From: Puniceicoccales bacterium
Lineage (GTDB): Bacteria > Verrucomicrobiota > Verrucomicrobiia > Opitutales > LL51
Reading direction: 5' to 3'
Assembly: GCA_031283585.1 (NCBI GenBank)
Contig: JAITBP010000010.1
Location: 11,565-75,564 of the forward strand
Length of the DNA: 64,000 bases
The notes below the pieces were generated by a model, which searched no databases, was not told the DNA's origin, and was given only the letters and a program-made list of their open reading frames with translations. Below are positions 6,065-64,000 of the stretch, piece by piece; positions within the stretch are counted from its first letter, which is position 1, and every line of letters starts with the position of its first letter. The translations under genes and the position numbers were made by a program.

Positions 6065-7762
6065 TCACTCATCCATGTTATTTTCATCAGAAAATTGCAT
6101 GATTTCGGCTAGAGTTGTCCTGCCTTTTTTTACCTGTTCCCAGGCACATTTTGACAACGTTTCCATCCCGTGTTCTATGGCTATATCTCGTATTATTTTC
6201 GTCGGCGTACCCTTTATGATTTCCGAATGAAGTCTGTCATTTACCACAAGAACCTCAAACACAGCGAGTCTTCCACGGAACCCATTTTTACATTTATCAC
6301 AGCCTTTGCCTTCGAATATTTTATCGCTAAATTGTATTTCGTCTTTAGGGTCTATCCCAAGGGCTTTTAGGCAGTGGCTCAGTTCAGCCTCTTCGTATTT
6401 CTTTGGTTTTGCACAGTGTGGACAAAGTTTCCTGACCAATCTTTGGGCTACCACCAATTGTAATGAACTTGCGATCATGAATGGCTCGAGATTCATGTCT
6501 ACTAATCTTGAAATCGCTCCAGCTGAGTCATTTGTATGTAATGTACTGAGCACAAGGTGTCCGGTAATAGAGGCTCTTATGGCTATGTCAGCCGTTTCCT
6601 GATCTCTTATCTCACCTATCATCACCACATCCGGATCTTGCCTCAATATGGAACGCAATGCACTGGCAAAGGTCATGCCGATGTCTGACTGAACCTGGCA
6701 TTGGTTTATACCAGCGATTTCGTACTCCACAGGGTCTTCCACAGTTATTATCCTGATTTCCGGCGATCTTATCTTTCTTATACAGGCTCCAAGCATTGTT
6801 GATTTACCAGAACCTGTTGGACCGGTTACCAATACGATACCATGCGGCCTGGTTATTGCATTCACTATCTTTTTTAACTCAGGTTCTCCCAGCCCCATGT
6901 CTTCTATGGATACTGGTGCATCACCCAGGTCCAATAGACGAAGGCTGATGCTTTCTCCATATACCATTGGCAATGTGGACACACGTATATCCACAGATTT
7001 TTCGCTTGATTTAAAAGATATACGGCCATCCTGAGGTCTTCTTTTCTCAGAAATGTTCAATTTGGCCATGATCTTTAGGCGAGAAATTACCGCTGCCTGG
7101 TAATAGATCAAATTTGGCGGAAGTTTGACTGGTACAAGCGCACCATCAATACGATATCTTATTTGCAAAGCATTCTTTTGGGGCTCAAAGTGAATATCGG
7201 TGGCTCTATCTATGAGCGCCTGTTTTATTACCTCATTTACGAATTTTATTATTACAGCATCTTCATCTTCGTCAATGACTTCTGATTTTGCCTGAAGATT
7301 ACCACTTTCATCACCCTCTAGAAAATTATCTGCTCCAACACCAAATTTGGCGTTTATTATCTTTTTTATTTCACTGGCATCACCCAGGAGATATTTGTGA
7401 TCGCTTGGACAGGCGGCCTTCATCCAACGCTTCATCATTTCATTCGGTGGCCAGCCAAAAATTATGGCAATCGATTCATCTTCCTGCTTTATAGGAATGC
7501 ATATATATTCATGGATGATTTGTGATGGGATTACCGCCGTTATATCATCACAGGCCTCGAATTTCTCAACAAACTCCAAACCTGAGGCTTTGGATAACCA
7601 GCTATAGGTATCCTTGATACTATAATCCAATTTTTCTGCAAGAACTTTGGCTCTTTTTTCAATTTGTGCACCGAGAATATCGCTTTCAACGTCACTGCCA
7701 AGTTCACTAATCTTATTTTCCAAATTATCCATTTTTACATAAATAATACCATTGTCTACCAA
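6065..7762 (-). CDS. gspE: type II secretion / type IV pilus assembly ATPase (GspE/PilB family)
   Basis: 565 aa. Walker A GPTGSGKST, Asp box, Walker B VMIGEIRD, His box and a tetracysteine motif CPHC..CDKC. The track start 7762 is TTG; ATG 7732 (MDNLENK) is more likely. Confidence 0.9.
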   Translation of the reverse strand: MVDNGIIYVKMDNLENKISELGSDVESDILGAQIEKRAKVLAEKLDYSIKDTYSWLSKASGLEFVEKFEACDDITAVIPSQIIHEYICIPIKQEDESIAIIFGWPPNEMMKRWMKAACPSDHKYLLGDASEIKKIINAKFGVGADNFLEGDESGNLQAKSEVIDEDEDAVIIKFVNEVIKQALIDRATDIHFEPQKNALQIRYRIDGALVPVKLPPNLIYYQAAVISRLKIMAKLNISEKRRPQDGRISFKSSEKSVDIRVSTLPMVYGESISLRLLDLGDAPVSIEDMGLGEPELKKIVNAITRPHGIVLVTGPTGSGKSTMLGACIRKIRSPEIRIITVEDPVEYEIAGINQCQVQSDIGMTFASALRSILRQDPDVVMIGEIRDQETADIAIRASITGHLVLSTLHTNDSAGAISRLVDMNLEPFMIASSLQLVVAQRLVRKLCPHCAKPKKYEEAELSHCLKALGIDPKDEIQFSDKIFEGKGCDKCKNGFRGRLAVFEVLVVNDRLHSEIIKGTPTKIIRDIAIEHGMETLSKCAWEQVKKGRTTLAEIMQFSDENNMDE

Positions 7763-8883
7763 TCATAACCATCGTAATCATCATAATAATCATAGTCGCC
7801 GTAGCTACTATTCTCACTACTACTATAGTAATTATTATCATATGAATTACTATTACCCTGTTGCTCACCTGGTACTATTTGCTTTCCCTGTTTTAGTATC
7901 TCCAGATCCTGCTCCCTTCCATTTTGCTGTTTGATTCGTATAACTTTTTTAATCGGATCATAGGCCACAATGGAAAGTGGATCAGCTTCATTGGTTGAGT
8001 TTGTATTAATCACAAAACTTCGTTTCTCAGCCTTGTTATAGAAACTGAAAAAGTCTCCTTTGCTTTTACTATTTTTACCAAATGTAAGAATGCCATGGAA
8101 TTCCAGATCCAGCTTTGGTAAAGAATCCATATTTGGGGTTGCATCTTTATCTTCGCCTTCTTTGTCTTTGCTACCTTTTTTATCACTGGGTTTTTCCACC
8201 GGAGCTGGAGGAATATATTTACCAAATGGAGAATTCTCCAACAAAGAATCAAATTTCAATAACTCCTTATTAATTGGCTTATCCTGGTCCTCATCTTCGG
8301 CTGACTCATCCTCATCAGATTTATCATCGGATTCTTCGGAGGATTCCTCTTTATCCTGGTCCTCATCATCAGAGGATTCCTCCTCGTCATCAGATTTATC
8401 ATCGGACTCTTCGGAGGATTCTTCTTTATCCTGGTCCTCATCATCAGCTGATTCCTCGTCGTCGGATTTGTCGGCCACAGCTTCGGCGGGCTTATTGCTA
8501 CCAGCTGCTGCCACACCAGCTTTGCTCTTATCAGGTTTAGCGGCATCTTCGGAGGATTCTTCTTTATTCTTGCCCTCGTCATCAGAAGATTCCTTGTCGT
8601 CGGATTTGTCGGCCACAGCTTTGACTGGCTTATTGCCACCAGCTGCGGCCACACCAGCTTTGCTCTTATCAGGTTTGGCGGCATCTTCGGAGGATTCTTC
8701 TTTATCCTGGTCCTCATCATCAGCTGATTCCTCGTCGTCGGATTTATCGGCCACAGCTTCGGCAGGCTTATTGCCACCGGCTGCGGTCGCATCCGCCTTA
8801 CTCGGATTAGAATTTTCAGCTGTAGCTATATTAACCAGCAGAAGAATTGCTAAAAATACTTTAATAGCATCGCGCATCGTCAT
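7756..8883 (-). CDS. secreted acidic tandem-repeat protein with a C-terminal beta-rich domain; possible GspC/PilP-like secretin partner
   Basis: 375 aa. Signal peptide MTMRDAIKVFLAILLLVNIATA, three 46-aa acidic repeats, and a beta-rich segment LEFHGILTFGK..FFSFYNKAEKRSFVI..IVAYDPIKKVIRIKQ that resembles HR/PilP-type domains. It ends in a Tyr/Asp tail YGDYDYYDDYDGYDW. It lies between the secretin and the ATPase. Confidence 0.4.
   Translation of the reverse strand: MTMRDAIKVFLAILLLVNIATAENSNPSKADATAAGGNKPAEAVADKSDDEESADDEDQDKEESSEDAAKPDKSKAGVAAAGGNKPVKAVADKSDDKESSDDEGKNKEESSEDAAKPDKSKAGVAAAGSNKPAEAVADKSDDEESADDEDQDKEESSEESDDKSDDEEESSDDEDQDKEESSEESDDKSDEDESAEDEDQDKPINKELLKFDSLLENSPFGKYIPPAPVEKPSDKKGSKDKEGEDKDATPNMDSLPKLDLEFHGILTFGKNSKSKGDFFSFYNKAEKRSFVINTNSTNEADPLSIVAYDPIKKVIRIKQQNGREQDLEILKQGKQIVPGEQQGNSNSYDNNYYSSSENSSYGDYDYYDDYDGYDW
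8271..8781. repeat. in-frame tandem repeats: about 2.7 x 138 bp, followed by shorter acidic repeats
   Basis: The string cggattt(g/a)tcggccacag recurs at 8463, 8601 and 8739, an exact 138-bp spacing. The encoded unit is AGGNKPAEAVADKSDDEESADDEDQDKEESSEDAAKPDKSKAGVAA. Confidence 0.9.
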
Positions 8884-8898
8884 AATAAGTTTAATTCA

Positions 8899-11379
8899 CT
8901 ACCTTCTCCTGCGAAATCGCTTTATGTTGTTCTTATCACCTACATTTCCACCGGTATTATTTTGACTTTTATTATTTTTATTTCCATCCTGCGGTACATT
9001 GGTCACATTATTAACCGTTGTATCTTTACTTTTCTCCTCCAATTCTAGCTGTTGATGTTCCTGTAATATTTTTTCGCGTTCGCGCTTTTTTCTCCTACTT
9101 TCAGCTAACTGTAATCCAAACAAGGTGTCTTCAGGGAATGGCTCTCCATCTTTGAATTTTCCGTTTCTAATATAGGAATTCATATCCTGGGTGAGGTCTG
9201 CAGCAGTTAATCTTTTTTCGAGATAGCCAACCTCATCCTGGGGCTGTAATATTATCGTCGGCTTGATGAATATTATTAGTTCTGTTGTTGTTTCTTTCCT
9301 CCTTCTTGAAGAAAACAGTGCATCGCCGACAACTGGTAAATCGCCTAATAACCACATCTTGCCTCCGCTATTTTCCATAATTTTTTCCTGTAATCCTGCC
9401 ATCACAACTACGTCCATATCGGCTACGCTTACAAACGAGGTTGCATGTTTTGTAGAAATAATAGGTTGAGTCCCTGCGGAAAATACGGCTTCCCCTATTT
9501 TCTTTTCAATTTTCTGTTCTATTTCCAACTGAATTATCCCATTATTACCAATAAGCGGCTTAACTTTCAGCATAATGCCAACATTCTTGTAGGTTATATT
9601 GGTTTTTACTCCACCGCCGGTATTGGCATCGGATACACTTGATTCAAGGATCGGCATGGATTCTCCAACTTCTATCAAAGCTTCCCTGTTATGGGTTGTA
9701 ACTATGGTTGGTGCCGACATTATTTTTATATTTGAGTCGGTTTTGGCTTTTCCAAACACAGTATCTAGTGAAAAATTCCTTAAATTTCCTGTCAGTTTGA
9801 AATGGCTATCAGCTCCACCAATGGTATAGCTTATCTCACTACCTTTACCACCGGACGAGTCTGATGAAGAAGAGGCTCCCTCTGCCCCACCTTCGCCACC
9901 GGATGAGCCACCAGATGAACCACCGGACGGTTTAAAGCCAACATTGAAAGCATCCAGTCCACTTACCTGCCCCTTATCCAGCGTCACCTGGGCAATAACC
10001 ACTTCTATCCTGACCTGATCCAGTAGCACATCAAGTTTGCTTATAATTGACTTCACCCTGGAAATATCCGAAGGGGTTCCGTGGACTATGATAGAATTGC
10101 TGCGATCATCGTGTTCAATAGCCAATGAATTAGAAAATTGCATATCCTGTTCACCTAATTGATTGCTTATGGAGTTGGCAGAACTTGTATCGGCGCTATT
10201 TGGCATACCTATTGAGAATCTGGGCGGTACGGGTGCGGAATTTTGATTCCTCTGAGCCTGCAATTCTAGATTAGCAAGTCTATAGGAATTGGCCTTATCT
10301 TCTTGTTTTCGTTGTTCATCTATTATTTTTCTCATTACTTCCGAGATATCTTTGGCATCACCATGTTTTATCCTAATTACCTCGGTCCTGGTTAGCGGCT
10401 CCTTATTTACATCTAGGTTGGTTATAATTCTTTTGATCACACTTAGACTTTCCGAAGGTGCCATTATTATAAGCTGATTGGTCGTTTCATCGCTTTCGAT
10501 GGTAGTATTGTTTGAAAAATATTTTTTAAACGAACCATGATTGCATATATCCTTTATGCACTTCATCACCGATGAAACCTTTACATTGTTTAGCACATGA
10601 AAATACATCTCCTCTTTTATATCAATCGGCACATCTACCCTTTTTACTATTTCCTCTATTCTCTGCAAATTGGCGAGACTATCTATAACCAACAGCGAAT
10701 TCGATGACTGGAAATGAATTACCTGGGACAGCGAGCCGGTGACTAGAGGTTTTATTAGCTTATTGAAGTCACCAGCATCGAGGTATGAAAATGTAAAAAA
10801 TTTCGAATAGGCCTTTTGGCTGGCAACCACATCAACTAGTGTATCATCAACCAGCTCCGGCGCGTTACTAGAGGTATTTTTAGCTGTAACAGCTTTGATA
10901 AAATCATCGCCCATATCTATTATTGCTATGCCATTCAAAGCCAATAAGCTTTCTATGGCCAATATGGCTTCGGCCCTTGTCATAGGCTGCTGAATTTCCA
11001 GGCTTATTTTAGTCTCTGGTATTTTTTCCCTCAAAACCGTTTTGCCGGTTAATTTCTCTAATATGGATAGCACCTGATTAACCCCTTCTTCGGCTAAAAC
11101 AAGTTGTTCCACTATGTCATTGCTTGGATCACTATCATCATCCACCTCGGTATTATCATCCACCTCGGCCTCGGTATTGTTACCACCATTAGAGCCGTCA
11201 GAGTCATTGCTATTTTCAGCATCATCACCACCAATCTCGCCAGCTGCCATAGGGTTATTATCTTCATGTTGTTGGTCCAATTGGTCCATATCCTCGTCTA
11301 AATCTGCACAGTGTGAAGAGGTATACGCAAAAAAACATAAAATGGTTAAAAATAAAACTTTGCCTCTATTCATTTTCAT
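8899..11379 (-). CDS. gspD: secretin (GspD/PilQ family outer-membrane channel)
   Basis: 826 aa. It has a signal peptide, an acidic N-terminal tract, repeated N-domain-like segments and a C-terminal secretin core (..MSAPTIVTTHNREALIEVG.., ..WLLGDLPVVGDALFSSRRRKETTTELIIFIKPTII). It also carries a Gly/Ser-rich insert and a basic C-terminal tail. Confidence 0.9.
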   Translation of the reverse strand: MKMNRGKVLFLTILCFFAYTSSHCADLDEDMDQLDQQHEDNNPMAAGEIGGDDAENSNDSDGSNGGNNTEAEVDDNTEVDDDSDPSNDIVEQLVLAEEGVNQVLSILEKLTGKTVLREKIPETKISLEIQQPMTRAEAILAIESLLALNGIAIIDMGDDFIKAVTAKNTSSNAPELVDDTLVDVVASQKAYSKFFTFSYLDAGDFNKLIKPLVTGSLSQVIHFQSSNSLLVIDSLANLQRIEEIVKRVDVPIDIKEEMYFHVLNNVKVSSVMKCIKDICNHGSFKKYFSNNTTIESDETTNQLIIMAPSESLSVIKRIITNLDVNKEPLTRTEVIRIKHGDAKDISEVMRKIIDEQRKQEDKANSYRLANLELQAQRNQNSAPVPPRFSIGMPNSADTSSANSISNQLGEQDMQFSNSLAIEHDDRSNSIIVHGTPSDISRVKSIISKLDVLLDQVRIEVVIAQVTLDKGQVSGLDAFNVGFKPSGGSSGGSSGGEGGAEGASSSSDSSGGKGSEISYTIGGADSHFKLTGNLRNFSLDTVFGKAKTDSNIKIMSAPTIVTTHNREALIEVGESMPILESSVSDANTGGGVKTNITYKNVGIMLKVKPLIGNNGIIQLEIEQKIEKKIGEAVFSAGTQPIISTKHATSFVSVADMDVVVMAGLQEKIMENSGGKMWLLGDLPVVGDALFSSRRRKETTTELIIFIKPTIILQPQDEVGYLEKRLTAADLTQDMNSYIRNGKFKDGEPFPEDTLFGLQLAESRRKKREREKILQEHQQLELEEKSKDTTVNNVTNVPQDGNKNNKSQNNTGGNVGDKNNIKRFRRRR

Positions 11380-12004
11380 TTATAAAATCGTAATTCATGT
11401 ATATTTGTGGTAACACATACATATTTGTGTCTTTTATCAAATTAGCTATCAGATCATTGATATTTTGTTTTTCACTGTTTATACCAAGAGCCGTAATGAC
11501 AAATTTCGCAGATATTATGCCATTACCCGACGATGACAGATCAACTTCCTCCACACGCAAATTCTTTTGTTGAGTCTCTATCATATTATCAAATAACAAC
11601 AAACTTTCCATTTTTAACCCCGAGAAACTGATAGCAATTTTATGAAATTCGAAAAAATCCTTTGATTCGGTTGATGGACTTTCTAGCGAATATTGTTCAT
11701 CAGCCTCGCGTGCCGCATCGTCTACCACCTCCATTAATCGATGCTCATCCATTTTATCATTTTTAAAAATATTAGCTACAGTATCTTTAAATTCATCGGA
11801 AATAATTTTTTCGTCATCAAGCCATTTTTTTTGACTAGACATTAAATTTTCATTATTAGTCCGCATTTCTACTAAAATTTTAGTATTTTTAGACACAAGA
11901 TACAGTGAAGAGATCAACAAAGAAAAAGCTGTAATTAGAATGATCCTGCGTATATTTGGACTCATGTAGAAAAACATACCTTTTAATTTGGCGAATATAT
12001 TCAT
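11366..12004 (-). CDS. bitopic inner-membrane protein, GspM/PilO-like by position and topology
   Basis: 212 aa. A single N-terminal TM (RRIILITAFSLLISSLYLV) is followed by a periplasmic domain. Its start overlaps the stop of the upstream gene, and its own 3' end overlaps the start of the downstream secretin gene. Confidence 0.3.
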   Translation of the reverse strand: MNIFAKLKGMFFYMSPNIRRIILITAFSLLISSLYLVSKNTKILVEMRTNNENLMSSQKKWLDDEKIISDEFKDTVANIFKNDKMDEHRLMEVVDDAAREADEQYSLESPSTESKDFFEFHKIAISFSGLKMESLLLFDNMIETQQKNLRVEEVDLSSSGNGIISAKFVITALGINSEKQNINDLIANLIKDTNMYVLPQIYMNYDFINENE

Positions 12005-16580: not shown

Positions 16581-18875
16581 CTATTTGGTGCTATTCGGAT
16601 TTGGTGGAGGTTCATGCATACCTTCCAGTTTTGTTTTATATACATTGGTTCTATTATTCTTGGTTGGTGCATGTCTTAGTGGAACGCCACCCGGGGAAAG
16701 AATGTTCGCCGTAACAAAAATAAGGAGGTTCTTTTTTTGCGATGTTTCGCCTTTGGATCTAAAGAGCTTACCAACCAGTGGGATATCACCTAATATGGGA
16801 ATTTTATCATGGACTTCTTTGATCTCTTCTCTGGTCAATCCACCCATCACCACCGTAGCTCCATCAAACACTGTCACCTCGGTTTTTATTTCACGAGTTG
16901 AAAAAATTGGCTGAAGAAATCCCGAGGGGATATTGACAGTTGTGTCTCCGGAAATAGCTATGCTTCTGCCACCATATTCTATAAATTTTTCGAATTCCGT
17001 AACCCGAGGTTCTAGCCGCATGCTTATGCAATTGTTTTCCTCAACCACCGGTGTGACACTCATTTCAACTCCAAGGTTCCTTGTGGTAAAATCACTAGGT
17101 GTACCGGCCGTTATGGTAACACCAGCTGCACCTGTACCGGTGGCACTGGTCGTAGAACCCACATCAGAGGTTATTGCGCTATAGGTCCTTGGATAAATAA
17201 ATTCCTGGGCAACGGTTATTTTGGCTGTTTTACCTGATAATACAGTCAGTTTTGGAGCACTCATCAGATTTGATCCCGATTGTTGCTCCAGCGCCTTTAT
17301 CAGTAAATTTACCTTGACACTGTTATACACACCGGTGATCGCACCCATAGCACCTATTCCCATGCCTAGATTTACGCCACTTGGTGACGAAGGTAATGTG
17401 TTTGATATATCAGTTTTTTCTATGCGCGTTGTATTGGTTGCGCTATCGTTTACCCTTTGAACAATCGACCCCTCGCCACTGGCAGAATCCTGTAATCCAA
17501 AGGTACTGCCTAGGGATCTCAAGGCGTCCCTTGCCTTGGAGTCCTTTCCACCGGTTCTAAGATATTGCTCCTTGTGAGGCTTACCAAAGGACACTGTCCA
17601 GTTGAAATTTAACTCATCTAAAACACCCTGTTGAACCTCCAAAAATTTTGTTTCTATCTCAACCTGTTTGACCGAATTGTATTTCCTGAGTATTTCTGCA
17701 ACCCTTTTTATGTTTCTTGGTGTTTGAGTTACAATAAGTTGAGTTCCATCATAGGCGATATCACTGCCTTCTATTCCAACAAAATTTACACCAGCATGCT
17801 GGAGAAATTGCTTTATTAATTTTTCCTCCTTGGCAATTAGAGTGGTTTTTTGTTTTTGTTCTTTCGGAGCTTTTATTTCAATAGCCGGAGCTTCGGCAAA
17901 ATTTTTTGTCGATTTGTTAAATAAATTTTTATCTTTTTTAGGCCACATTTTTTTTGATTTTTTAGCATTTGCACTTCCAGCCTCGGTGGAAAAATCCAAC
18001 TGGTCATCCTGAAGCCCAGTCATTCTTATGATCGTCGACCTGGAGATGGTGAAAAATTTTGTTTCCAAATTATTTACCTTCGGGCTACCGGCCTGGGTCA
18101 GCATTATGGCATTATCTTCTATATCCAGTTGAAAATTGCTTGCTCTGGCTACAAAGTTAAGAACCTTGCCAAGGGACAATGCTCTTAGATTAAGACTAAT
18201 ACATGGATCGATTTCATTGGCCCTAATCAGTACTATGTTTACACCTTTGGTATCTTTGTTTTCATCCTTATCATATTGTTCTGACAATTCAATTATGGTT
18301 TCTATTACGTGGGACAACGGTGTTTTATTGAAAGAAATTTTTGGTATCACTATGCTTGATAGCTTTTTTATTATAGGATCGTCATCAATTTCGTATTCCG
18401 TGACAGGAATATCAGCCTCGATTATTTTTGGGGATTCCCAGGATTTATCAACGGTATTCATCATCTCGGTCTTTGATTCCAGGTAGTCCTTTTGAGCTAG
18501 CCTATCGAATGTACGCATATTTCTATTAATTAATGCCTTAAGATACAAAGCATCCTTGTTATCAGGTTCATATTCCAGAATAAGACTTACCAACCTAAAG
18601 GCCTCTTCATAGTCAGAATTAAAACAAAGTGACCTGGCCCTTATCAGGGTAAATTCTTTGCTACGCCGGTCCAATTTGTCATAATTTTTTCTTTTTCCAT
18701 CCATTGATTGTTCTGTTTTTTCATTTCCGGCATCATAGATATCTGTTTTTTGCTCAAAATCTGCTATCTTTGAACCCGATTCAACATCAGCGTGACTATG
18801 ATTTGTGAAAATTGTGTTACCTATAAAATAAAACCAATAGAACATGAAAATAAGAGAAACGGCGTTACAATACAT
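16581..18875 (-). CDS. second secretin-family outer-membrane channel with a TPR-like N-terminal region
   Basis: 764 aa. N-terminal TM/signal and a TPR-like helix pair (YEEAFRLVSLILEYEPDNKDALYLKALI). An N-domain follows (IVIPKISFNKTPLSHVIETIIELS..GVNIVL..ISLNLRALSLGKVLNFVA). The secretin core reads LMSAPKLTVLSGKTAKI..VVMGGL..IPILGDIPLVGKLFRSKGETSQKKNLLIFVTANIL. Confidence 0.85.
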   Translation of the reverse strand: MYCNAVSLIFMFYWFYFIGNTIFTNHSHADVESGSKIADFEQKTDIYDAGNEKTEQSMDGKRKNYDKLDRRSKEFTLIRARSLCFNSDYEEAFRLVSLILEYEPDNKDALYLKALINRNMRTFDRLAQKDYLESKTEMMNTVDKSWESPKIIEADIPVTEYEIDDDPIIKKLSSIVIPKISFNKTPLSHVIETIIELSEQYDKDENKDTKGVNIVLIRANEIDPCISLNLRALSLGKVLNFVARASNFQLDIEDNAIMLTQAGSPKVNNLETKFFTISRSTIIRMTGLQDDQLDFSTEAGSANAKKSKKMWPKKDKNLFNKSTKNFAEAPAIEIKAPKEQKQKTTLIAKEEKLIKQFLQHAGVNFVGIEGSDIAYDGTQLIVTQTPRNIKRVAEILRKYNSVKQVEIETKFLEVQQGVLDELNFNWTVSFGKPHKEQYLRTGGKDSKARDALRSLGSTFGLQDSASGEGSIVQRVNDSATNTTRIEKTDISNTLPSSPSGVNLGMGIGAMGAITGVYNSVKVNLLIKALEQQSGSNLMSAPKLTVLSGKTAKITVAQEFIYPRTYSAITSDVGSTTSATGTGAAGVTITAGTPSDFTTRNLGVEMSVTPVVEENNCISMRLEPRVTEFEKFIEYGGRSIAISGDTTVNIPSGFLQPIFSTREIKTEVTVFDGATVVMGGLTREEIKEVHDKIPILGDIPLVGKLFRSKGETSQKKNLLIFVTANILSPGGVPLRHAPTKNNRTNVYKTKLEGMHEPPPNPNSTK

Positions 18876-41290: not shown

Positions 41291-42673
41291 TTAAACTACT
41301 GTTAAGCGATTGGGTCTTTGTATCTTAGTAAAAAATTGTTGCCTGACTGCCGGCATACATTGCTGGGCGGCATATATTGCCAGGGCCAATGCCCAAAATC
41401 TATCCGCATGGCCATTTTTACCGCGATCGGCATAGAACCTGATATTGCCAGAAAAAGTTACCTCCTTCTTTATAGCCCTCAGATCGGCACGGATGGCCGG
41501 ATCATCAGGAATCTTCACCGAACCAGTTTCGAAAGTCGTCAGCAACAAATAGGCCAATTTTTCTTTTATATAATTGGTAAAAGTGATGCCTTCGACCTTG
41601 TATTTTCCAAAAAACGCCGATGCACGCTCTGTAAATTGCCTACCGATACCGGTCTGATCTATGCCAATTCTTCTCAAAAATGGTATGCTCAGAAACTCAT
41701 GCAGAACCCGCTCTTGCTCGGAAAACGGTGCGTCTTTTAGGCAAATCACCCGCCTTGTTTCCAGGCAATCGCCACTTCTTTCTAGCAACCAAAACACCGT
41801 AAGGTCATGATCACGACCAATATCAATTCCAAGAAACACATTATCACTCTGCAAAGTTTCATAATTCAAAATCTCCCAATCATCACCATGTTTATAGGTG
41901 CATTTATCGATCAGTTCCGTTGGCAGGAAAATTGACTGATCATCCCAGGGAACACACATATATTCCTGCATAAACGACTCCTCATCCGGGCAAGAACTTC
42001 TGACATAATCGAAATACTCTGCCTCATCCATATGCTGCCTAGGATCATCTTCGGGTAATTTTCCTTTTAGTTTTGCCAAAAACCCTTGATCGAGAGCATC
42101 CTGTAGCGTAACTCTGTGATGTGAAAATTTCCTAAAATTACCGTTTTCACTTATATCTTTCAGCAACCTATTGAAAAAATTTTGAGAACCCCGGTGGGTG
42201 GATATGATTTCCAGTCGACCACCCCAGGTTATACCTGGGTAAGCCACTGAATATAAAGCCCTTGGGTTTTGATGAAGGGCAAATTCGTCCAATACACGAT
42301 TGCCGCGCTTGCCAGCCTGCGCATCTGGGCTTGACGATAGGGAATGGATATGTGTATTATTTAAAAAGCGCAGGGAAAAAGAAGCAAAATGCCTCGATTC
42401 TGGCAATATTTCAGAGCCCAGGGCCCGCGCGGCAATGTGTAAAATTTTACTAAATTTCCTGCAATCTTCTAGGAAAAGCTTCGCCTGGATTTCGTCCCTT
42501 GATGATACCCAGGAATCGATCTTCTTGTCACAGTTAGCATGTTCTCTAACAAGGCCATAAGCCGAGGCCATAGATATTCCGATTTGCCTGGATTTTTCCA
42601 TTATTTTCAGGCTTGAATCATCATTGATCCATCGCGACTGATAGGGTAAAAAAAATTTTTCCGAAACATCCAT
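41291..42673 (-). CDS. phage terminase large subunit
   Basis: 460 aa. The N-terminal FFLPYQSRWINDDSSLKIMEKSRQIGIS is a Terminase_6-type Walker A variant KSRQxGxS. A C-terminal nuclease-like region carries acidic motifs (GIDIGRDHD, GIDQTG). Confidence 0.8.
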   Translation of the reverse strand: MDVSEKFFLPYQSRWINDDSSLKIMEKSRQIGISMASAYGLVREHANCDKKIDSWVSSRDEIQAKLFLEDCRKFSKILHIAARALGSEILPESRHFASFSLRFLNNTHIHSLSSSPDAQAGKRGNRVLDEFALHQNPRALYSVAYPGITWGGRLEIISTHRGSQNFFNRLLKDISENGNFRKFSHHRVTLQDALDQGFLAKLKGKLPEDDPRQHMDEAEYFDYVRSSCPDEESFMQEYMCVPWDDQSIFLPTELIDKCTYKHGDDWEILNYETLQSDNVFLGIDIGRDHDLTVFWLLERSGDCLETRRVICLKDAPFSEQERVLHEFLSIPFLRRIGIDQTGIGRQFTERASAFFGKYKVEGITFTNYIKEKLAYLLLTTFETGSVKIPDDPAIRADLRAIKKEVTFSGNIRFYADRGKNGHADRFWALALAIYAAQQCMPAVRQQFFTKIQRPNRLTVV

Positions 42674-60206: not shown

Positions 60207-61211
60207 ATGAATAAAAATAAAATAAATAAATGTAGTTTAGCTATCATGTTGGTATCAATGGCTTGCTTTGATGCTGGCAGATGTTATGCCGTACAAGGCT
60301 CAGACTCAGATAGCGATGAGGAGTTTGTTGTTGAGGTATCAAATGATGACAATAATATGCAAGGGGAAGATTACTTAGATTTGTGCCCAAATCTTTCTAC
60401 TGCTATCAAAATAATCACACAGAAATATTATAGAGGCGAAATCACACGTAGAGATTGTTTAAAAAAATACAAGGAAGCTTGTAAGTTATTTGGTTCCGAG
60501 TATACATCGTCATTTCGTAAAAATTTAGAGGACTGGTGCCTTAAGTCTAATCGTAAAAATTTAGATTGCTGGGACCTTAGGTCTAATGAGATTGTAAAAG
60601 ATATTGAGCTTGGTGTAGAGCTTGGTGATATTTTATATTCAATTAGGTATAGGCTCGACCGAAGTGTAGCCGTTGCCAAGAGTAGTGATGAGTATCGTAA
60701 AGGATTCATACCTGAGATACTGGAAGCTAAATACCTAATGAGTCGTAAAATTAAAGAAAAAGTGAAAAAATATACCGAAAGCATTGTTGGACTACGTTAC
60801 GTCCCAAATAATAGCGATAGATTGGCATCACTAAATAACTTAAATAAGAATATAAATGCGTGTCTCTCAGAATGGAAAAACATAAGCAAGTATATCTATG
60901 ACAGCATTATACCGCTAATAAAAGCCCCTGAGAATTTTGATGAAGAAACTAAGAAGAAGTATCAAATTTCAGAAATGCGTTATGGTTATTTGAAGCCCTA
61001 TATTGAAGATGTACAAAGAGGAAATGAGTCTCTTGATTCTGATATTGCTAAGGAAATTTTAGATCTTTATAAAAATACAAAGGATAATGGTTTTGATAAT
61101 GAAAAAAAGATAAAAGAATTAGTGAAAGCGGTTAGAAGTATTATTCTTAATGCTAATAATCCTGAGTTGACCGAAATATTGGATGGATATAATATTGATG
61201 AAAATCTGTAA
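60207..61211 (+). CDS. hypothetical secreted protein (Sec signal, acidic N-terminus, helical)
   Basis: 334 aa. The signal peptide MNKNKINKCSLAIMLVSMACFDAGRCYA is followed by SDSDSDEEF. No recognisable motif. Confidence 0.45.
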   Translation: MNKNKINKCSLAIMLVSMACFDAGRCYAVQGSDSDSDEEFVVEVSNDDNNMQGEDYLDLCPNLSTAIKIITQKYYRGEITRRDCLKKYKEACKLFGSEYTSSFRKNLEDWCLKSNRKNLDCWDLRSNEIVKDIELGVELGDILYSIRYRLDRSVAVAKSSDEYRKGFIPEILEAKYLMSRKIKEKVKKYTESIVGLRYVPNNSDRLASLNNLNKNINACLSEWKNISKYIYDSIIPLIKAPENFDEETKKKYQISEMRYGYLKPYIEDVQRGNESLDSDIAKEILDLYKNTKDNGFDNEKKIKELVKAVRSIILNANNPELTEILDGYNIDENL

Positions 61212-61229
61212 TCAATATAATATACAACC

Positions 61230-62426
61230 ATGAGTTTTGGAAGTGTTGGTAGTGGTTCCATTCCGGATGGGATATATGTTAATGGTATACTCGTGGATCC
61301 AACAGCGATCCCCGAGGTTACCACTAACGTCAAAAAGAAAAAAGTTTCCGGCGATGCTCAGATTGGTGGTCAGGTGCTAAAAATCGTAGGACCTGAGGGA
61401 GTAGGAATCACCAGCGCGCCTGGTGAAGTGGCTGGATATTACCCTACCCTCACCGCTGACCCGACTTTCACCACCGAAGATGGCAAATGGGCAAAGGTGT
61501 TACAAAGCTTTGAGCAGGATACCAGTATGCGTATTGGGAACAGTGCAATCACAGCCAATGCAGAAGAATATAACGCCATGTTAAATGGCCTCGATGCCTC
61601 TTCAAACATAGCACCAAGTTCACGCACAGCCGCTAGTATTGGTACCCTTGCGGCCCAGGTAGCCATTCTAATGACAAAGAACGCTTCTTTGCAAAAATCC
61701 ATCGAGCGTGAAATGAAAGCCGAAATGACTCAGCTGCAATATCAGATAGGAATGGATGTGGCCCAAAAAATAAGAGAAAAAGGTGAATTGGAGTTCAACC
61801 AAAAGATGGTCGAGGCTTTCAGTGGTATCGTTGAAACTGCCGCCGGAATGATTGCTCAACAAATCGGCCGAAAGATATCTGAACATAATTTGCAAAAATA
61901 TGACGAAGGTGTTGCACAAATTGACACCACTGCACCCACATCCACACCCAGCGCAAAAGCTGCCGAAACAAGATCAGAACAGGCAGCCGACGAAAATTTT
62001 AATCGTGACCAATTTAATGCAAAGCAAGAAATCATAGATCAAAAAATTCAAAACGAGGAAATCATCAATAAAGATGCCAAGACCCTAAGTGGCCCAGCGA
62101 ATCTAGAACAAAATCAAAGAATGGCCATACCACTTACCGAAGCGGAGAAACAACAGGTTAATATGGAGGCTAGCCTGGCCGGCGATCTAGGTAAAGCCAT
62201 AGCCGGCTTTGCCATGAAAACAGTTTCCGCACATCTGGGTCTGCAAATCTCCAATAAAGAAGCCGATATCCGTGGTATGGAAGCGCTTAATCAATTGGTT
62301 GGAAATATCATACAGAATACCGAAAGTAGCATACGCTCCGCTGACCAAGCTACACAGGCGGCCATGCAATTATTCCAGCAAATCTGCCAGACCCGTCATG
62401 AAGCTTTCCAAAGTGTGGTAAGGTAA
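61230..62426 (+). CDS. hypothetical coiled-coil protein with amphipathic/hydrophobic segments, no Sec signal (secretion-substrate-like)
   Basis: 398 aa. The N-terminus is MSFGSVGSGSIPDG. Hydrophobic stretches are AASIGTLAAQVAILM and AIAGFAMKTVSAHLGL, with long Q/E/K-rich helices. The start lies 18 bp after the upstream gene. Confidence 0.45.
   Translation: MSFGSVGSGSIPDGIYVNGILVDPTAIPEVTTNVKKKKVSGDAQIGGQVLKIVGPEGVGITSAPGEVAGYYPTLTADPTFTTEDGKWAKVLQSFEQDTSMRIGNSAITANAEEYNAMLNGLDASSNIAPSSRTAASIGTLAAQVAILMTKNASLQKSIEREMKAEMTQLQYQIGMDVAQKIREKGELEFNQKMVEAFSGIVETAAGMIAQQIGRKISEHNLQKYDEGVAQIDTTAPTSTPSAKAAETRSEQAADENFNRDQFNAKQEIIDQKIQNEEIINKDAKTLSGPANLEQNQRMAIPLTEAEKQQVNMEASLAGDLGKAIAGFAMKTVSAHLGLQISNKEADIRGMEALNQLVGNIIQNTESSIRSADQATQAAMQLFQQICQTRHEAFQSVVR
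62287..62402. repeat. 116-bp block (3' coding end of gene 61230..62426), copy 1
   Basis: 115/116 identical to 63282..63397 by manual alignment. The single difference is AGT/AGC, synonymous in the gene frame. Confidence 0.9.
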
Positions 62427-62432
62427 TTATAT

Positions 62433-63239
62433 TCATAAAAGGCCACAATCGTAAATGGAAAAATCACCTAAGTCTTCTTCTTCTTTTTTAATGTCAACGT
62501 TGTTGACTCCTTCTCCAGTACCTGGTGGTGTTTCCATCGAACCAGATTTCCTTACTGTTCTGATTTTGATTTCTATTGCATTACATAGATCAGTGGATGG
62601 GTTACCAACCTCTTTAGCTATTTTGTATGCATTTTCAAAGAGATCAACATTTTCCTCGGTTACTCCTTCGCATTCCGGTGTAGAGAGCTTTTCAAGAATC
62701 TTTAACCAGGGCAGATATACATCACCATGTACTTTACACCAAACCTCATATACAGTAGAGCATTCAAATATATAACACAACATATTAGTCAGCCTACACT
62801 TCAATTCTTCTTGACTATTATATAAATTGCCCACATTGTTGTACGACCAGTCTGACATGGCTATAATCTTGCTGCTATCAGGGTTAAGGATGTAGGTAAA
62901 CCCTAGAAATTTTGGCACTTGACAGAAAAGATTTTTCAGGTTGTAAAAGAATAAAGTGGGAATATCCACGTATTCACCACAACAGATGTTAAAAGCGCTA
63001 TTATACGTGTTGTTACCAGGACAAAACCAATTTGTGTTTTTGTCGTCTTCAATAAAACTAAAGCTATTGTCACGACAAATTTTACAGAAATTATGCCAAG
63101 TTATATAATTACCGTCACAATCAATCCATGATTTGTCTCTTGCATCTTTTAACCAATCTTGCCAAGGGTCAGCACTCAAAAAATTAAACACTGACATGGC
63201 CATAAACAACAATATACATTTTCTACTATTATTACACAT
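62433..63239 (-). CDS. Cys-rich secreted hypothetical protein, paralogue 1
   Basis: 268 aa, about 20 Cys. Signal peptide MCNNSRKCILLFMAMSVFNFLSA. It is clearly alignable to the ORF at 63391..>64000. Confidence 0.5.
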   Translation of the reverse strand: MCNNSRKCILLFMAMSVFNFLSADPWQDWLKDARDKSWIDCDGNYITWHNFCKICRDNSFSFIEDDKNTNWFCPGNNTYNSAFNICCGEYVDIPTLFFYNLKNLFCQVPKFLGFTYILNPDSSKIIAMSDWSYNNVGNLYNSQEELKCRLTNMLCYIFECSTVYEVWCKVHGDVYLPWLKILEKLSTPECEGVTEENVDLFENAYKIAKEVGNPSTDLCNAIEIKIRTVRKSGSMETPPGTGEGVNNVDIKKEEEDLGDFSIYDCGLL

Positions 63240-63281
63240 GTCGTTGATTTTGATAGAGTTATATTTTTTTACAATATTTGT

Positions 63282-63397
63282 TTAATCAATTGGTTGGAAA
63301 TATCATACAGAATACCGAAAGCAGCATACGCTCCGCTGACCAAGCTACACAGGCGGCCATGCAATTATTCCAGCAAATCTGCCAGACCCGTCATGAA
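63282..63397. repeat. 116-bp block, copy 2 (orphan gene-3'-end fragment)
   Basis: Offset by 995 bp from copy 1. In the gene frame it reads ..NQLVGNIIQNTESSIRSADQATQAAMQLFQQICQTRHE, then diverges (NFQCAIK*). The upstream frame hits a stop at 63254-63256, and no ATG precedes it. Confidence 0.9.
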
Positions 63398-64000
63398 AAT
63401 TTCCAATGTGCGATAAAATAATTATGCCTACGAAGCATGTCAGCGTTGTAAGGGTTTCCTCCAGTATCTGGTGGTGTTTCCATCGGATCAGGTTTCCTTA
63501 CTGTTGCGATTTTTTCTTCTATTGCTCTGCATAGATCAGTGTTCATGTGACAAACCCTTTTGGCTATTTTGTATGAGTTTTCAAAGAGATTAACATTTTC
63601 CTTGGTCACTACTTCGCATTCCTGCGAAGAGAGCTTTTCAAAAACCTTTAACCAGGGCCAATATACATACCCATATACTCTCCTCCAAACCTCAAATACA
63701 CTAGAGCAATCAAATATATAACACAACGCACTGGCCATCTTATCTTTCATTTCTCCTTCATATAAACTGCCCACATCGTCAGACATCCAGTCTAACATGT
63801 TTATAGTCGAGTGATTACCATCGTTGAATTCATAGGGATATTTTAAAATATTTTGCATATGACAGAAAAGATCTTCCAGTTTGATAAATAATAAAGTGTT
63901 AATATCCCCGTATTCATCACAACAAAACCAATTTGTGTTTTTGTCGTCTTTAATAAAATGAAAGCTATTGGCATGACAAATTCTACAGACATAGGCCCAA
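63391..64000 (-). CDS. Cys-rich hypothetical protein, paralogue 2 (5' end beyond the window)
   Basis: The track lists 63391..63858, but the frame stays open upstream to the window edge (my translation: ..WAYVCRICHANSFHFIKDDKNTNWFCCDEYGDINTLLFIKLEDLFCHMQNIL..). That stretch aligns with paralogue 1 apart from a 12-aa in-frame gap. The 3' end reads into the 116-bp block. Confidence 0.5.
   Translation of the reverse strand, partial: WAYVCRICHANSFHFIKDDKNTNWFCCDEYGDINTLLFIKLEDLFCHMQNILKYPYEFNDGNHSTINMLDWMSDDVGSLYEGEMKDKMASALCYIFDCSSVFEVWRRVYGYVYWPWLKVFEKLSSQECEVVTKENVNLFENSYKIAKRVCHMNTDLCRAIEEKIATVRKPDPMETPPDTGGNPYNADMLRRHNYFIAHWKFS

Follow-up and report, generated by a model that had tools for sequence, protein, structure and literature searches.

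Layout of the duplicated locus

We analyzed a 64,000-nucleotide (nt) stretch of DNA from the metagenome-assembled genome of a termite-gut Puniceicoccales bacterium (Verrucomicrobiota), here called the window (assembly GCA_031283585.1, contig JAITBP010000010.1 of 75,943 bp, positions 11,565 to 75,564), in which a block of 116 nt occurs twice close to the right end. The first copy of the block is part of the 3′ end of an intact gene encoding a protein of 398 amino acids (aa). The second copy belongs to a relic of that gene end, and this relic lies between two related genes on the opposite strand that encode Cys-rich proteins (paralogues 1 and 2). The two copies of the block are nearly identical, whereas the rest of the duplicated unit has diverged; our analysis concerns how this arrangement came about. 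The features are collected in Table 1.

Table 1. Features of the duplicated locus in the window
Feature	Coordinates	Strand	Remarks
Intact 398-aa gene (NCBI LBB20_03025, hypothetical protein)	61230..62426	+	Open reading frame (ORF); 100% match to P0001
Block copy 1	62287..62402	+	Residues 354-391 of the 398-aa protein; putative conversion donor; 115/116 to copy 2
True gene tail AFQSVVR, stop (62424-62426), and 4 nt	62403..62430	+	20/28 to 63398-63425
Cys-rich paralogue 1, 268 aa	62433..63239	-	Signal-peptide-like N-terminus; 6 nt away from the stop of the convergent 398-aa gene
AT-rich 42-nt spacer upstream of paralogue 1	63240..63281		Right end is the novel tandem-duplication junction
Block copy 2, relic of the gene 3′ end	63282..63397	+	Without upstream reading frame; putative conversion recipient
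Relic tail NFQCAIK, stop (63419-63421), apparently unconverted	63398..63425	+	Background divergence
Cys-rich paralogue 2 (NCBI LBB20_03035, P0007), 259 aa	63391..64000	-	3′ 203 codons in the window; runs off the window end

In pairwise comparison, the copies of the block match at 115 of 116 bases, with exact shared runs of 40 and 75 nt. The sole mismatch (T at 62327, C at 63322) distinguishes AGT from AGC, either of which encodes Ser in the frame of the 398-aa gene. Outside the block and up to the window end, 467 of 603 aligned ungapped columns are identical (77.4%), and the next-best run of 116 columns has 101 matches. Given a 77.4% background, ≥115 matches in 116 have a binomial probability of 4.6e-12; when the match vector was permuted 20,000 times, 115 was never reached.

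To the left of the block we found zero similarity between the copies; because similarity stops exactly there, we take 63281/63282 to be the duplication junction, at which the spacer upstream of paralogue 1 is joined to codon 353/354 of the 398-aa gene. The duplicated portion of the gene therefore amounts to its last 140 nt, that is, its last 46 codons. To the right of the block, 28 nt continue in register with 20 matches, a degree of similarity that is very improbable for unrelated sequences (P = 7e-6) and ordinary against the 77% background (P = 0.29). The tail of the gene reads RHEAFQSVVR and that of the relic RHENFQCAIK, each followed by a stop codon. The alternative tail consists of 8 codons homologous to the real one (16 of 24 nt identical; P = 0.16 against the unit background), in which A392 has given way to N and R398 to K; both original residues are invariant across four orthologues. 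Beyond these 28 nt, the unit copies align only with four indels (2, 47, 6, and 39 nt), across which the start-to-start spacing of the units drops from 995 to 946, 940, and finally 901 nt.

Copy 2 has no upstream coding continuation: the relic frame contains a TAG at 63254-63256 and no ATG, and a TTG at 63278 opens a mechanical ORF of 47 aa. Its minus strand supplies the last two codons and the stop (63391-63393) of paralogue 2. We rejected the 47-aa ORF as a free-standing C-terminal domain because it lacks an ATG and is preceded, 8 codons upstream, by an in-frame stop; the absence of a Shine-Dalgarno sequence is a feature that it shares with the intact 398-aa gene, which weakens the case against its translation.

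Much of what a preliminary description of this DNA had reported was borne out by the recomparison, namely, the 115/116 match with its single synonymous change, the loss of identity 3′ of the block and the two tails that follow, the divergence of the co-duplicated Cys-rich genes with indels, the missing coding continuation of copy 2, and the termination of the antisense paralogue 2 inside the block. Identity computed column by column confirmed that divergence along the unit is not uniform. The unit length of 995 bp given in that description holds as the spacing at the block, but over the part visible here the second unit is ~94 nt shorter.

Origin of the near-identical block

We favor, with a probability of roughly three in four, a history in two steps: an old tandem duplication and, recently, a short ectopic gene conversion in which part of the live gene was copied into its relic. 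The ancestral layout is shown by L001, a locus with an orthologue of the 398-aa gene: because a distant Cys-rich homologue occupies the same convergent position there, the ancestral state was one gene of each kind, a single 398-aa gene convergent with a single gene for a Cys-rich secreted protein. Since L001 has one copy of the gene and no relic, the duplication is lineage specific. A unit of ~1 kb was duplicated head to tail. Because the left breakpoint fell within the 398-aa gene, 140 nt from its 3′ end, the second unit opens with the last 46 codons alone, without promoter or start codon. The units afterwards diverged to ~77% identity and acquired several indels. Much later, RecA-type homologous recombination between the direct copies would have written ≥116 nt of the intact gene into the relic, probably as a non-reciprocal gene conversion; leftward, the tract would have been stopped where homology ends at the duplication junction, and its right end would lie between 62402 and 62403. 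One substitution since then would put the age of the conversion at ~4% of that of the duplication (1/116 versus a synonymous divergence, dS, of ~0.22). Recent gene conversion was among the options offered by the preliminary description, and it is supported by the sharp right edge, where identity falls to background divergence, and by the coincidence of the left edge with the end of homology.

The block differs by 0.9% (one synonymous change), versus ~22% at synonymous sites of the co-duplicated genes. Because copy 2 is non-coding, its expected rate of drift is no lower than that of synonymous sites, and because silent and non-coding sites match too, protein-level selection cannot explain the identity of the block. 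Under conversion, no function of the block itself need be assumed. The 28 nt to its right are homologous at background divergence, arguing that the duplication already included the end of the gene and that only part of it was re-homogenized. The intact gene is most likely the donor, to judge from the sequences: the block encodes family-conserved sequence, while the unconverted tail of the relic has lost A392 and R398. The C-terminal ~45 residues of the protein, those encoded by the block, are the best-conserved region of the family, and copy 1 encodes sequence conserved in orthologues P0002 and P0003.

Related duplications provide a comparison. We searched all fetched loci by tblastn with the C-termini of the family and found a second C-terminus copy in just two of them, the window and L004 (GCA_031278845.1, JAITJQ010000056.1, 1973-4120). 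In L004, a full-length family gene is followed by an ankyrin-like signal-peptide gene and then by a second copy of the last ~166 nt of the family gene, a decayed tandem duplication whose 1053-bp unit consists of this 3′ part and the ankyrin-like gene. Between the copies, identity is 81% in the gene fragment and 88% in the neighbor fragment, an even decay with no refreshed patch. In the second unit, a ~700-bp deletion fuses the gene fragment in frame to the ankyrin-like C-terminus (P0025); the ankyrin-like gene is frameshifted into ORFs of 143 and 88 aa. A third locus, L003 (JGI 3300042643, Ga0466704_080247), is a contig of 1137 bp that begins and ends with the same 119 nt and has a period of 1018 nt. 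Given this exact terminal overlap, L003 is a closed assembly path at k = 119, and it implies that another organism has either identical units in tandem or a small circle. Its unit holds ~80 C-terminal family codons, preceded by in-frame stops, and a 226-aa ankyrin-like signal-peptide gene; a search with the fragment protein returned itself alone and no full-length partner from that organism.

The L003 and L004 events are independent of that in the window because neighbor family, orientation, and breakpoints all differ, and since the independent L004 duplication decayed evenly, relics of this gene are not generally kept identical. What recurs is duplication of a secreted-protein neighbor together with the end of this gene, not the preservation of an identical fragment. 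We also considered short stand-alone homologues as free C-terminal domains and rejected them, because P0024 is a fragment of a repeat unit and P0025 is the decayed fusion. The L002 contig (10001-11079) stops 116 nt after the stop codon of orthologue P0004, and its opposite strand carries a partial ORF of 37 codons; this break right behind the gene may point to a further repeat, uncrossable at k = 119.

Several points weigh against conversion from the live gene as we have described it. The conversion is inferred from one sequence alone, and scans of genome and metagenome contigs with a Cys-rich alignment, and of the metagenome with an alignment of family C-termini, found no sister genome with the same duplication. 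A third copy of the block outside the window may have been the donor. Other recombination events may have shaped the unit, given the patchy identity across the Cys-rich genes (53-91% per 58 columns). At the variable site it is the relic (C), not the gene, that matches the orthologue, which is uninformative on direction and adds no support. The proposed mechanism is ordinary and already known in kind; the observation itself is real and highly non-random.

It is unlikely that the duplication itself is recent, or that an excised circle integrated through the block in the manner of Campbell, with the tail and Cys-rich gene of one unit derived from, or later overwritten by, a diverged third unit or allele. 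Such a history could draw on the ≥3 Cys-rich paralogues in this metagenome-assembled genome (MAG), on the extra 5′ fragment fused in P0007, which implies that the array was rearranged more than once, and on the closed 1018-bp path of L003, which suggests that such units can be amplified, and possibly circularized, in a relative. However, it would need replacement of >600 bp and a donor unit with a diverged gene tail, making it less parsimonious than a tract of ~116 bp; the relic tail is without the family-invariant residues, unlike a functional allele of another strain; and there is no third copy of the block within the 64-kb window. We consider it very unlikely that the C-terminal block of the family is a portable recombination handle with which effector-like neighbors are amplified, excised as circles, re-integrated, and exchanged. 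The near-identity of the block would then be kept by recombination traffic, not by a one-off conversion, an idea that takes up the presence of such units in three Puniceicoccales loci (the window, L003, and L004) but to which we attach little probability.

An assembly artefact, in which a short-read assembler made the tandem layout or the identity, for example by joining two strain alleles, is highly improbable. The DNA does come from a MAG; for sister MAGs, contig names beginning with k119_ indicate assembly by MEGAHIT at a final k of 119; and repeats near this gene do disturb assembly, as seen from the closed path of L003 and from L002, which ends 116 nt past the orthologue. On the other hand, reasoning from the assembly method, a 116-nt block is shorter than k = 119 and should leave a single path through both copies at the final k, no de Bruijn graph can create the non-homologous junction at 63281/63282 without reads, and assemblers do not lift 77% similarity to 99% locally.

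The preliminary description had the block "homogenised or constrained," and only the first of these stands: homogenization extends to silent and non-coding sites, whereas block and L001 orthologue share 72-73% nucleotide identity, no better than the remainder of that gene (71-73%). The same comparison opposes a cis element held constant at the nucleotide level, be it an antisense target, a terminator, or a promoter or intergenic element between paralogues 2 and 1, a possibility to which we give next to no weight. The placement of the copies is compatible with such a role: copy 2 lies between the stop of paralogue 2 and the start of paralogue 1, and would be part of an antisense transcript if the two were co-transcribed, and copy 1 lies just past the stop of paralogue 1. 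Yet we detected no terminator-like site in 62200-63500, fold energies of both strands of both copies cannot be told apart from those of shuffled sequences (z = −0.04, +0.59, −0.40, and +0.05), and promoter-like matches (16 versus 10.4 ± 2.7 in shuffles) barely exceed expectation. The idea of a 3′ antisense or terminator element shared by the convergent genes, as put forward earlier, is not sustained by these data.

We also hold it to be extremely improbable that the locus is a programmed C-terminal cassette, with the relic as silent cassette and the 116 bp as recombination handle for switching the last 8 residues, although a tail-swap cassette had been suggested in the preliminary description. 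The architecture formally matches that of orphan contact-dependent growth inhibition (CDI) modules (PMC3150448), 3′ fragments of the family recur beside duplicated neighbors in L003 and L004, and the family is probably secreted or host facing, to judge from the type III secretion context described below. But the variable part is merely 8 homologous codons at background divergence, the alternative tail replaces two orthologue-invariant residues, and a single cassette is visible, the L004 equivalent having decayed with its ~700-bp deletion. Furthermore, homology beyond the tail is so poor (47-nt indel) that the sole easy exchange would be an irreversible deletion of paralogue 1. A target-site duplication by a mobile element was rejected as well: 116 bp is far too long, and there is no transposase and no inverted repeat.

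Neighboring genes and a probable link to type III secretion

Profile searches with the 398-aa protein gave no Pfam, NCBIfam, or PDB match, and an exhaustive profile search among 1.84 billion proteins found 24 related cluster representatives. Its structural model, built from a four-sequence alignment, is nearly all helical and of low confidence (predicted local distance difference test score, pLDDT, 38). Upstream of the gene, a 334-aa signal-peptide gene contains a 36-nt tandem repeat (60515-60586; two copies, 83% identical), which encodes RKNLEDWCLKSN / RKNLDCWDLRSN.

A lead on the family comes from four related Puniceicoccales MAG contigs (L005 to L008) from termite-gut assemblies, with names of the k119_ type. 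In L005, L007, and L008, the family member is convergent with a diverged paralogue of ~25% identity. This paralogue (298 aa, minus strand) follows a protein of 555 to 680 aa, also encoded on the minus strand, that has weak SseC/translocon matches; homologous 164-aa proteins come next in L005 and L007. Over its full length, the L007 copy of the 164-aa protein matches the SycD/LcrH chaperone model TIGR02552 (E = 1e-27; 96.5 bits, cut-off 104.8). The clusters span 1081-5081 in L005, 9302-14131 in L007, and 9287-13943 in L008, with the family gene on the plus strand; those of L007 and L008 include a small ankyrin-like gene, and a 2012-aa ORF is next in L007. By gene order and profile scores, these clusters look like type III secretion translocator operons.

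Among family members themselves, 3 of 21 have weak SseC matches (best E = 1.9e-4, below the cut-off). The 398-aa protein matches no curated translocator model; no chaperone or apparatus gene adjoins its gene in the window, nor is its L001 orthologue in a chaperone-translocator operon. No type III apparatus gene is found among the ten largest ORFs of the window. The family is probably related to type III secretion translocators, a lead that comes from synteny and sub-threshold scores and amounts to no assignment.

As for the Cys-rich proteins (~260 aa), they have signal-peptide-like N-termini, no Pfam or NCBIfam match, and no known domain. The MAG encodes at least three of them; P0006, from a contig of 25,462 bp, is 82% and P0007 (paralogue 2) 55% identical to paralogue 1, with a range of 53-55% protein identity for paralogue 2 versus paralogue 1. 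Between these two, nonsynonymous divergence (dN = 0.28-0.32) exceeds synonymous divergence (dS = 0.20-0.24; dN/dS of ~1.3), which would indicate relaxed or diversifying selection on secreted proteins. Their C-terminal tails are wholly different owing to the 47-nt indel. At the start of P0007, just past the window end (~64100-64170), the signal-peptide/N-terminal region is repeated in frame and in tandem over 24 aa (MSVFNFLSADPWQDWLKDIRDKFA/MSVFNFFSADPWQDWLEDIRAKSW); the repeat replaces the normal n-region and may have damaged paralogue 2. This extra fused 5′ fragment indicates that the array was rearranged again, and it gives indirect support, but no more, to the suggestion of the preliminary description that further units may lie beyond the window.

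Elsewhere in the window, the minus strand carries two secretin genes (826 and 764 aa) and a gene for a T2SSE-type ATPase (565 aa) at 6065-11379 and 16581-18875; these genes are type II secretion or type IV pilus machinery. An ORF at 41291-42673, likewise on the minus strand, has a phage terminase large-subunit nuclease domain (Terminase_6C, E = 1.6e-12), so that the region around 37-47 kb may contain a prophage or the remnant of a phage.

The locus illustrates that local identity can badly misdate duplications. It is also unstable: recombination between its 116-bp direct repeats can remove paralogue 1, after which the gene would end in the decayed tail, to the detriment of the conserved C-terminus of the 398-aa protein. 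An ascertainment effect has to be kept in mind: only identical tracts shorter than k survive inside contigs of such MAGs. In our opinion the context outweighs the block in interest, because it comprises a small, unannotated, predicted helical family in termite-gut Puniceicoccales with a syntenic link to type III secretion translocator operons. Host-interaction loci typically show fast divergence and repeated duplication, as seen here in the genes for secreted Cys-rich or ankyrin-like proteins, and this pattern could help to find effectors in these uncultured symbionts.

Comparison with known systems

Type III secretion translocator operons, which concern the identity of the 398-aa gene family and not the repeat, have the order SycD/LcrH (class II TPR chaperone) - SctE/YopB/SseC - SctB/YopD, and chaperone-like and weakly SseC-like neighbors accompany the diverged paralogue in the L005, L007, and L008 clusters. 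Here, however, all scores stay under the curated cut-offs, and the 398-aa protein matches none of the models.

Nearby direct repeats are good substrates for RecA-dependent recombination, and the copies in the window are nearby direct repeats as well. That bacterial paralogues evolve in concert through gene conversion is well documented, for example for tufA/tufB (PMC6053082, which cites Santoyo and Romero, 2005). Like such paralogues, the window combines, within one genome, a near-identical patch that includes silent sites with sharp edges against older divergence. It differs in that the recipient is a non-coding 3′ relic and not a second functional gene, so that selection for uniformity is unneeded, and in that the tract is short (≥116 nt) and single, not recurrent over the full length.

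Orphan cdiA-CT modules are start-less fragments in which a stretch of homology with the upstream gene is followed by an abrupt loss of identity (PMC3150448). Compared with orphan cdiA-CT/cdiI and Rhs modules, the window likewise has a start-less 3′ fragment downstream of a full gene with a shared stretch of homology, and in both cases a deletion that joins the two homologous stretches would give the main gene the downstream tail. But the window has no VENN/DUF638 or RHS signature, the part after the homology consists of 8 homologous codons instead of an unrelated toxin domain, and the neighboring gene is not an immunity gene: it lies on the opposite strand, is signal-peptide-like, and is a paralogue of the gene in unit 1. 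The pilS silent cassettes are another system to which the cassette explanation would liken the relic.

A further parallel is offered by partial-gene tandem duplications that leave gene-fragment pseudogenes, in which a breakpoint in a neighboring gene leaves a truncated, inert copy at the junction, as in the window and in L004. The window differs from these in that its fragment seems to have been partly refreshed by conversion, and so looks younger than the duplication that produced it.

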